The position numbers and the translations under genes were made by a program. Shown here in pieces: positions 38,516 to 40,430 of a stretch of 40,430 nt of DNA. Each line of letters begins with the position of its first letter. Positions within the stretch are counted from its first letter, which is position 1. The notes beneath the pieces were generated by a model. That model searched no databases and was not told where the DNA came from. It worked only from the letters and a program-made list of their open reading frames with translations. Origin of the DNA: Escherichia phage MirsaeidiM_Esher7; sequence record PQ593108.1; one strand, written 5' to 3'.

Positions 38516-39039
38516 CACTCGCAGTCCTCCTCAGCAGCCTCAGGATCGAACACTACGTTATCGTTGATGTCTTCGACCTGCATGTGAAAACCTTCCTCAT
38601 AGAGTTCTTTTGCACATGCAATAGCCTCGTAAAGTGATACAGCTGCCTCAATTATCTCGCCTGTTCTAGTGTCAACTACCCAATATTCAGCCTTTTCGTC
38701 TTCCTCTTCAGCCTTTTCGTCGCTCTCTTCAGCCTCAAACCAGACTACATCCGAGCTATTAGACACATCGTTATACAGTGCCTCATAGATGCGAGCTTGT
38801 AGTATACGCGTTACGTCCTTGGTCTCAGGCATCAGCCCAGAGTCTTCGAACTCGTGGTCTATACCATCAGCAGCCATCACCGTAAAAATCTCGTGGTAAT
38901 AGTGCGGAACCTGACCGTCTACGACCTCATGCAGCGCATCGCTGTAGTCATCGCCTTCAGCTATTTCGTCGTACTGAATACGCTCATTGAACAGCTTAAC
39001 GGTTTCAGCCAGCAGCTCATAGTATGCGTTACGTTCCAT
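38515..39039 (-). CDS. ocr: Ocr-like anti-restriction DNA-mimic protein (gp0.3) with C-terminal extension
   Basis: N-terminal 118 aa closely match recalled T7 Ocr (VPHYY..IF.VMA..GID.EFEDSGLMP.TKDV.RILQARIYE); an additional 56 acidic residues follow (174 aa total vs about 117 in T7). Confidence 0.85.
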   Translation of the reverse strand: MERNAYYELLAETVKLFNERIQYDEIAEGDDYSDALHEVVDGQVPHYYHEIFTVMAADGIDHEFEDSGLMPETKDVTRILQARIYEALYNDVSNSSDVVWFEAEESDEKAEEEDEKAEYWVVDTRTGEIIEAAVSLYEAIACAKELYEEGFHMQVEDINDNVVFDPEAAEEDCE

Positions 39040-39066: not shown

Positions 39067-39120
39067 GTTAGTGACTATCAGTCAGGCCGCTATGAGTCTA
39101 ACGACCTGTAGTTAATCACT
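39067..39120 (-). promoter_or_regulatory. imperfect long hairpin E1, candidate RNase III site upstream of the Ocr-like gene
   Basis: Arms gttagtgactatcagtcagg and cctgtagttaatcact are imperfectly complementary; a second copy lies at 39384-39443. Confidence 0.4.
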
Positions 39121-39383: not shown

Positions 39384-39443
39384 GTTAGTGACTATCAGTC
39401 AGGGCCTTCAGATGTAGACTCAAAGGCCCTGTAGTTAGTCGCT
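39384..39443 (-). promoter_or_regulatory. imperfect long hairpin E2, candidate RNase III site (R0.3-like)
   Basis: Shares the 20-mer gttagtgactatcagtcagg with E1; inner stem CAGGGCC/GGCCCTG is perfectly complementary; immediately 5' of the first early gene RBS. Confidence 0.4.
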
Positions 39444-39695: not shown

Positions 39696-39730
39696 CTATT
39701 AAGCCATAGCCTAGACCTATAGTCAATAGG
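39696..39730 (-). promoter_or_regulatory. sigma70-type early promoter candidate (T7 A1-like)
   Basis: Minus strand TTGACT, 17-nt spacer ATAGGTCTAGGCTATGG, CTTAAT; layout resembles T7 A1. Confidence 0.35.
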
Positions 39731-39837: not shown

Positions 39838-39941
39838 ACTGTAGGTCTATGACTGTAGGTGTTGGTGTCTTATGGTTATGAGACTGTAGGTTAGTGAGAC
39901 TGTAGGTGTAGGACTGTAGGTTAGTGAGACTGTAGGTGTAG
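39838..39941. repeat. array of ACTGTAGGT 9-mers including a perfect 30-bp tandem duplication
   Basis: Six copies of actgtaggt between 39838 and 39937; the 30-mer gactgtaggttagtgagactgtaggtgtag occurs twice in tandem (39882-39911, 39912-39941); two further copies near 40228-40251. Confidence 0.6.
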
Positions 39942-40375
39942 GACGTAATGTTATACTATAACACTATACAGATAGAGACTCAAAGAAGACCTATAGCCCC
40001 TACCTATCGTCCTTCCCTAAGCCATAGCCTAGACCTATCGTTGACCTGAAGTCTTGACCATCGGTCCAACCTTATGATAGACTGGCTGTGACTGCAAGGA
40101 GCAGTAACGGGTAGGGCCTTTGGTATGGACTTAAAGAGGGCCTATGGGGAGACTTGAGGTTCTTGAACTGTGAGATGTGGTCTCAAACTTTTGGTCCAAA
40201 ACTCATCGAAGACTGTGGTGACAGCTACTGTAGGTCAAGGACCGTAGGTCAGGCGACACTAGGATAGACCAATAAGTAGGATGACCCTAAGTGAGCTTCT
40301 CTTAAGGTGTTACCTAAAGTCCTTGACTACAGTAGCTAAGGTCAGTAGAGTAGCGTCAGCTATGAACTGACCTTA

Positions 40376-40430
40376 GGTCTTCAATGGGCGTATTCCCACT
40401 CCGTCTTATAGTCCTCTTCAGAGAACGAAC
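40376..40430. repeat. terminal direct repeat copy, identical to 1-55
   Basis: Exact 55-bp match to window start. Confidence 0.8.

Follow-up and report, generated by a model that had tools for sequence, protein, structure and literature searches.

Short-repeat arrays flanking the predicted terminal repeat of a K1F-like Escherichia phage

Results

A cluster of short repeats in non-coding DNA

The window analysed here is the whole 40,430-nucleotide stretch deposited for Escherichia phage MirsaeidiM_Esher7 (PQ593108.1), and close to its last positions lies a cluster of short direct repeats (39838-40251). Exact copies of ACTGTAGGT start on the plus strand at 39838, 39852, 39883, 39899, 39913, 39929 and 40227; an eighth copy at 40241 on the same strand, ACCGTAGGT, departs from ACTGTAGGT at one base. 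A sequence-only reading of this DNA had counted at least eight copies of a 9-mer: seven of them stand as exact copies, the eighth only with its mismatch. Over both strands the window holds 12 exact copies against 0.50 expected, and in 100 dinucleotide-preserving shuffles the count never exceeded three. Seven of the 12 are packed into 412 bp (39838-40249, the one-mismatch copy included); the other five, at 1729, 16755, 21012, 32318 and 34201, lie mostly within long ORFs. The 30-mers at 39882-39911 and 39912-39941 are identical, and this perfect 2 x 30-bp tandem duplication, already claimed from the sequence, was returned both by the repeat search and by Tandem Repeats Finder (39882-39944, period 30, 2.1 copies, 100% matches). 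Because the copies and the duplication far exceed chance expectation, we count them as real.

Does the cluster encode anything? No ORF longer than 37 amino acids occurs in 39838-40251, so that the interval is non-coding, as the sequence-only reading had held, and a coding reading is ruled out. Rfam returned no match for the interval at E<=1. Folded as a single strand, the six copies from 39838 to 39937, referred to below as the left array, do worse than shuffled controls (z = +1.46), which together with the empty Rfam search rules out a structured RNA or DNA element as a reading of this array. T7 primase sites have the form (G/T)(G/T)GTC, which by eye the units lack, and a primase-site reading was dropped.

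Orientation and true ends of the genome

Where in the phage genome does this cluster lie? The last 1 kb of the window matches 223 phage records, mostly of Kayfunavirus (K1F-like Studiervirinae), the best of them with 94.6% identity on the opposite strand. All 13 copies of a phage-promoter-like 21-mer are on the minus strand, which makes the window the reverse complement of the conventional orientation. The repeat search also found an exact 55-bp copy of positions 1-55 at 40376-40430. We infer that this identity is the k-mer overlap of a circular assembly and not a biological terminal repeat, and the ends of the window are therefore not ends of the genome. The claimed position near the left genome end fails on this point.

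The K1F record (NC_007456) carries an identical 178 bp at both of its ends, and this sequence aligns to the window from 40175 to 39975. By homology, we place the direct terminal repeat (DTR) of the present genome inside the cluster interval, at 39974-40175 on the minus strand, as a single collapsed copy of 202 bp that would run from TCTCACAGTTCAAG... to ...TTTGAGTCTCT. Compared with K1F it contains a 24-bp insertion at 40086-40109 (about GTTACTGCTCCTTGCAGTCACAG), common to LM33_P1 and PDP21P1, which brings its length to about 202 bp. That the DTR appears only once is a consequence of the circular assembly.

The first 19 bases of the K1F repeat, used as a probe against IMG/VR, gave 28 loci, and seven IMG/VR genomes start at, or at most 2 bp from, TCTCACAGTTCAAG / TCTCACAG, and in six of the seven the same 179-191 bp is exactly repeated at the opposite end. 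Deposited Kayfunavirus right ends mostly stop at ...GAGTC(T/C)CT, that is, at the T just before ATCTGT, the same position at which the T7 end ...GTGTCCCT precedes ATCTGTT. Run-off sequencing has fixed the ends of two of the end-matching genomes, those of the Citrobacter phages SH3 and SH4 (183 and 190 bp, respectively; PMC4925675).

The contig is, then, a circularised and reverse-complemented assembly in which the DTR has shrunk to one copy and the opening point, about 200 bp away from the true junction, is arbitrary; collapse and misplacement of the DTR are well documented in short-read assemblies of T7-like phages (PMC10438801; PMC3350473). Judged by these alignments, 39838-40251 straddles the concatemer junction of a K1F-like phage that was assembled as a circle. 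The repeats had been described as one array between the early promoters and the terminal repeat. Instead, the DTR lies inside the interval, with six copies on its promoter side and two on the other, and the copies fall into two separate sets, a variable left-end array and an invariant right-end pair. They are better labelled as arrays flanking the terminal repeat than as one array 'near the left end'.

The left-end array and the junction site

On the minus strand, the left array (39838-39937) consists of six ACCTACAGTC units (the genome-orientation form of ACTGTAGGT) with spacings of 16, 14, 16, 31 and 14 bp, and it lies just inside the left DTR, about 30-37 bp past TATCTGTAT. Its proximal block, which varies in copy number, is the 2 x 30-bp duplication itself (39882-39941), with four ACCTACAGTC units spaced at 16, 14 and 16 bp. 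The distal pair, ACCTACAGTcatagACCTACAGT in genome orientation (39838-39860, 14-bp spacing), closes the array in most of 26 relatives, one subgroup ending differently. Between the two blocks, at 39861-39881, stands a degenerate unit (...ACCATAAGACACCAAC / ACCATAAGAC in genome orientation), which accounts for the spacing of 29-32 bp in all relatives.

The junction site TATCTGTAT (39966-39974, minus strand) is found in all relatives. It lies at the right boundary of the terminal repeat, where a class II site at a concatemer junction (CJ) is expected, and resembles the T7 concatemer-junction class II pause site. The class II signal is defined by the heptamer ATCTGTT, strictly conserved at all seven positions, after an A, C or T (PMC11617373; bioRxiv 10.64898/2026.02.12.705533). 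The window and all 26 relatives read T-ATCTGTA, which agrees with six of the seven bases and falls outside the strict definition; the altered heptamer counts against CJ-like pausing. The requirement of the Kayfunavirus polymerase may differ, and a CJ-like action of the ATCTGTA site is possible. In the GenBank records of PE3-1 and K11 the corresponding site is annotated as 'concatemeric junction'.

Overlapping the junction site and pointing into the array is a sigma-70 extended -10 promoter-like site, TTGAGT-17-(TGt)TATAGT (39955-39983, minus strand); in T7 the CJ is at the same time an extended -10 promoter used by E. coli RNA polymerase (bioRxiv 10.64898/2026.02.12.705533). A second sigma-70-like site with a TG extension is located inside the DTR on the plus strand (40054-40083) and is directed toward the left genome end, a position like that of the leftward A0 promoter annotated in T3.

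Downstream of the left array follow the early-promoter region and then an ocr-like gene. Twenty-four nucleotides of the first early-promoter region (39700-39723; minus-strand TTGACT-ATAGGTCTAGGCTATGG-CTTAAT) recur with 96% identity in the DTR, at 40018-40041, where the -35 reads GTCAAC, an arrangement also present in K1F. An exact 20-nt repeat, GTTAGTGACTATCAGTCAGG, is found upstream of two early genes (39067-39086 and 39384-39403) beside GC-rich hairpin-forming sequence; these are possible RNase III processing sites of the kind present in the early region of T7. A 21-bp tandem repeat (38686-38735, 2.4 copies, 89% matches), located just within the early-gene region, is probably part of coding sequence.

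The right genome end

On the other side of the DTR, the two right-end repeat copies (40227-40249; -74 and -60 from the DTR start) belong to the right-end pair ACCTACGGTccttgACCTACAGT (40223-40249, minus strand), which does not vary among 23 genomes and makes up one arm of an inverted repeat of 24-27 bp. The second arm, AGCTACTGTAGTCAAGGACTTTAGGT (40312-40337, minus strand), contains two motif-like units in the opposite orientation. A third right-end copy has decayed to CACCACAGT (40212-40220, minus strand) at a position where most relatives keep (A/G)CCTACAGT; with its two good units and this decayed one, the right-end set spans 40212-40249, about 40-75 bp before the DTR. A nearly invariant 13-bp palindrome, TTTTGGACCAAAA (40189-40201), lies 14-26 bp outside the left-end cut position as part of the conserved block CGATGAGTTTTGGACCAAAAGTT. 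Further from the DTR, a hairpin with perfect 11-bp stems, CTAAGGTCAGT / ACTGACCTTAG, is predicted at 40336-40376 (minus strand), the stems being invariant in relatives while the loops vary. The last promoter-like site for the phage RNA polymerase before the junction, at 440 to 420 on the minus strand (420-440), is phiOR-like. Its location, about 570 bp upstream of the DTR, is that of phiOR in T7, and transcription from it would run across the junction. An iteron-type replication origin, in which a dedicated initiator protein binds iterated sites beside AT-rich unwinding DNA, was also briefly considered for the repeats; replication origins of the T7 group depend on RNA polymerase promoters.

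How strongly is this end held constant? Among the 23 genomes, GACCTACGGTCCTTGACCTACAGT and its partner arm are almost invariant (the arms are unchanged in 22-23 of 23), whereas the intervening DNA diverges and has in some of them been replaced. Pairing is retained at 97.8% in the long inverted repeat and at 100% in the hairpin. The right-end inverted repeats showed no covariation in these 23 genomes, the one compensatory pair being in the hairpin loop; since the arms do not vary, pairing is uninformative as to whether structure or sequence is constrained. Treated as a single strand of DNA, the 215 nt ahead of the DTR (40176-40390) are predicted to fold far better than shuffled sequence (z = -4.82, reached by 0 of 200 shuffles). 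The equivalent T7 stretch is far less structured (z = -1.6, against -4.8 for the Kayfunavirus right end), and a search of it for a long inverted repeat found only short, weak ones. For this reason we do not equate the Kayfunavirus inverted repeat with the T7 'hairpin' intermediate.

Downstream of the phiOR-like promoter, a 22-codon ORF, MDEESYGSFSEEDYKTEWEYAH, with a strong Shine-Dalgarno sequence, AAGGAGGT, runs on the minus strand from 74 to 1 and continues from 40375 to about 40383. It occurs in K1F and a few relatives; most have other sequence there.

Copy number and conservation among Kayfunavirus relatives

We compared the left arrays of 26 distinct Kayfunavirus junctions by an unbiased k-mer count. 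An array of ACCTACAGT(C) is present at all 26 junctions, with ACCTACAGT and CCTACAGTC repeated at least twice in 26/26 left arrays; no 11-mer is repeated in more than 15 of the 26. Between the retained 10-mer ACCTACAGTC cores these genomes have 17 distinct short spacers. Spacings of 14, 15 and 16 bp dominate, with 29-32 bp over the degenerate unit. Comparing copy number among relatives, a check that the sequence-only reading had proposed, gave 3-8 copies for the left array and an invariant number at the right end.

Variation in the left array takes the form of independent whole-unit tandem duplications, of 15, 16 and 30 bp, in the proximal block. SH3 and ZG49 carry 5 x 15 bp, another genome and Mt1B1_P3 4 x 16 bp each, ASO2B 3 x 16 bp, and PDP21P1 an expansion of a 15-bp unit. 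ECO104 4-5-2 and PH1061 have the 30-bp unit of the present genome once, between the same flanks, which makes the duplication seen here, two units long and with undiverged copies, the derived state. A search of IMG/VR did not return the exact 60-mer of the duplication, and matches of GenBank phages to the junction region do not exceed 96.5%. From these comparisons the 30-bp duplication is probably a recent two-unit slippage or unequal exchange, and probably nearly neutral; the suggestion of a recent slippage event is borne out by the one-unit relatives and by the different expansions in ASO2B, Mt1B1_P3 and PDP21P1.

That the 10-mer is kept while the duplicated block is not argues for selection on the unit, rather than for mere recent duplication. 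The published Kayfunavirus genomes (K1F, LM33_P1, ASO2B, Mt1B1_P3, PDP21P1, PH1061, SH3, SH4, ZG49 and CR44b) share with the present one, in homologous sequence, the motif, the flanks, the distal pair and the right-end pair, and differ from it only in the number and arrangement of the proximal units. The 2 x 30-bp allele is accordingly the sole part particular to this genome, a minor strain marker.

Counterparts in T7, T3, K11 and SP6

In T7, the 160-bp terminal repeat is followed by ATCTGTT and then by about 12 (A)CCTAAAG units at a spacing of 13-15 bp; further units lie before the right terminal repeat and inside the terminal repeat, and tandemly duplicated units, gaccagacctaaagaccagacctaaagac, also occur. 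The T7 unit ACCTAAAGT and the Kayfunavirus unit ACCTACAGT are identical at eight of nine positions. Both genomes have the order terminal repeat, (T)ATCTGT(T/A), same-orientation array with its units 13-16 bp apart, and related units before the right terminal repeat. They differ in that the window has six units against about 12, lacks a phiOL-type phage promoter after the array, and has its right-end copies within a long inverted repeat whose predicted single-strand fold is strong. T3 shows a terminal repeat, ATCTGTT, and then CCTAAAG/CTTAAAG units together with two ACCTGTAGT-like units. In K11 the terminal repeat is followed by TATCTGTT and ACCTGAGGT-type units, and in SP6 TATCTGTT is followed by (A/T)CCTTAGT units. 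In all four phages, then, the terminal repeat and the junction site TATCTGTT are directly followed by short repeats of ACCTnnnGT type.

The T7 arrays were reportedly named SRL and SRR by Dunn and Studier in 1983, who are said to have proposed a role in concatemer formation or maturation from their position; the names themselves found no match in the accessible literature. We take the ACTGTAGGT/ACCTACAGTC copies to be the Kayfunavirus counterpart of these short-repeat arrays. In the window, an array lies immediately internal to the left DTR and related units precede the right DTR; a 7-10-bp unit is iterated in one orientation at a spacing of about 13-16 bp with variable spacers; the unit is related to T7 ACCTAAAG(T); and the DNA is non-coding, with no ORF above 37 amino acids and no Rfam match. 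As a kind, such arrays are already known, recognisable by sequence in T7, T3, K11 and SP6 as well as in each Kayfunavirus genome that we examined. Their assignment to a T7-family class of short repeats, made in the sequence-only reading, is well founded, given the layout shared by these four phages and the ACCTACAGT(C) array in 26/26 Kayfunavirus genomes.

A similar arrangement has been described in another genus. The T7-like fPS phages of Yersinia carry 11-34 repeats between the left terminal repeat and P1 (Salem and Skurnik, 2018; PMC5923468). Like those of the window, these are non-coding repeats that extend from the left terminal repeat to the first promoter and are also found beside the right terminal repeat; their copy number varies among genomes that are 90-97% identical, most of all close to both terminal repeats (PMC5923468). 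Unlike those of the window, they are built from other repeat units and reach much higher copy numbers (PMC5923468).

Packaging signals offer a further point of comparison. In T3 and T7, PacB is the signal recognised in the concatemer by the small terminase gp18, and PacC is the site cut by gp19 (PMC9860248). The right-end pair and the conserved block by the left-end cut are plausible positional counterparts of the pac signals: pair, palindrome and cut-site flanks are invariant, pac itself being functionally defined. Coordinates for PacB and PacC were not found in the accessible literature. How T3/T7-type phages initiate and terminate packaging is regarded as less understood than the corresponding steps in cos or headful systems (review, 2026; PMC13595956), and in a 2026 preprint the sequence that follows the CJ in T7 is termed 'unassigned' (bioRxiv 10.64898/2026.02.12.705533).

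Discussion

What could such arrays be for? What we see is their position and orientation, a 10-mer that is kept between variable spacers, turnover of copies at the left end and invariance at the right. Taken jointly, these features are in our opinion best explained by a concatemer junction with SRL/SRR-type arrays that act in cis during maturation, the 30-bp duplication having arisen by slippage or unequal exchange, and we regard this joint explanation as likely. An action of the arrays in cis in concatemer maturation is probable. Their position makes a role in packaging or concatemer processing plausible, and the more specific proposal, that the maturation machinery recognises the units, is a tentative one, with a reasonable chance of being right. 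No experiment on a unit-binding protein or on a requirement for the array, even in T7, was found in the accessible literature.

Under this explanation, the 10-mers would serve as cis-acting protein-recognition sites during maturation of the concatemer. The phage RNA polymerase, starting from the phiOR-like promoter, would cross the right-end structures and the terminal repeat and pause at TATCTGTAT, and terminase would act on either side of the DTR, cutting the right end where the terminal repeat stops. Essential signals would come from three elements: the right-end set, the palindrome and the TCTCACAG flank. The left array might act as a redundant multi-site platform or buffer, with only weak selection on how many units it has. 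That left-array units are freely gained and lost argues against a strict requirement for this array; of the two, the invariant right-end set is the more likely to be an essential pac-type signal. The period of about 15 bp is out of helical phase and does not imply simple cooperative binding to one face of the DNA. The contrast between an invariant right pair within an inverted repeat and a left array that keeps its 10-mer, not its copy number, suggests targets for mutation.

Could the iterated 10-mer be more specific still? It might be the recognition element of the small terminase, or of a polymerase-terminase complex, that marks both flanks of the terminal repeat, with the lineage variants as a packaging-specificity code. 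We consider this unlikely, if worth stating. If it were true, the variants ACCTAAAGT in T7, ACCTACAGT in Kayfunavirus, ACCTGAGGT in K11 and CCTTAGT in SP6 would constitute that code, and left-array copy number would tune efficiency, in a group of phages in which recognition and cutting of the concatemer are still described as poorly understood (PMC13595956).

Four other explanations have to be weighed, all of which we rate below arrays that act in maturation. The arrays could simply be functionless, slippage-prone simple sequence that persists in non-coding DNA beside the terminal repeat. Such sequence would be expected to behave much as the left array does, drifting between 3 and 8 copies among relatives by whole-unit tandem duplication while degenerate units decay in place, and no established function for the array was found in the accessible literature. 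It would not be expected to retain a 10-mer core in 26/26 genomes despite 17 spacers, to place the same motif on both sides of the DTR, or to keep the right pair invariant in 23 genomes while the DNA between the arms diverges; nor would it explain an architecture kept across T7, T3, K11 and SP6 with lineage-specific motifs. A lack of function is therefore rather improbable.

A transcriptional role could take two forms: a very early array RNA made from the extended -10 promoter, or units that, as partial mimics of the phage promoter, hold RNA polymerase near the junction. The first would fit the direction of the promoter-like site (TTGAGT-17-TGtTATAGT, from 39983 to 39955), which points into an array with notably little single-strand structure (z = +1.46). 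It would also agree with T7, where the CJ is a strong extended -10 promoter and a possible RNA-level function has been suggested; stable T7 transcripts from the region are, however, not abundant (bioRxiv 10.64898/2026.02.12.705533). The TATAGT box, moreover, exists in only a subset of relatives, and K1F differs in sequence there. As to mimicry, the unit (reverse complement ACTGTAGGT) matches the core ACTATAGGA of this phage's promoters at seven of the nine bases from -7 to +2, but this is the melting and initiation part only, without the recognition element from -17 to -5 (PMC11617373), and the resemblance is weak for K11 and SP6. We regard a transcriptional role in either form as quite improbable.

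Might the duplication have been created by the assembly, from a phage with a single unit? The 55-bp end overlap and the collapsed DTR are those of an uncurated assembly of the short-read type, and errors in repeat regions are documented for T7-like phages (PMC10438801); the failure to find the 60-mer in IMG/VR, or a GenBank phage above 96.5% over the region, would fit as well. Against this, the repeated stretch is 63 bp long with a self-overlap of 33 bp, shorter than a k of 55, and should form no cycle in a k=55 graph, and independently sequenced relatives carry analogous expansions of 15-, 16- and 30-bp type at the same spot. To an assembly artefact we consequently attach very little weight.

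Finally, the left array could serve in genome entry or end protection, as a buffer or platform for ejected internal proteins or against exonucleases, but this is hardly credible. Nothing but its location speaks for such a role: the array comes after the left DTR and ahead of the early promoters, among the first few hundred bp that reach the cell, and the host polymerase transcribes once the left end is in the cell (PMC5923468). The role explains neither the presence and invariance of the motif at the right end nor the conservation of the core instead of array length.

Arrays that flank the terminal repeat and probably act in maturation thus remain our preferred reading, and the location of the repeats within the record bears on the record itself. 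The contig needs to be reverse complemented, reopened at TCTCACAG (window position 40175), trimmed by 55 bp and supplied with a second terminal repeat of about 202 bp. In the deposit of Providencia phage EPr2 (OM256482.1), a 179-bp 'direct terminal repeat' is annotated at 1-179 and again at 501-679, which suggests that this sequence carries right-end DNA before the true left end.
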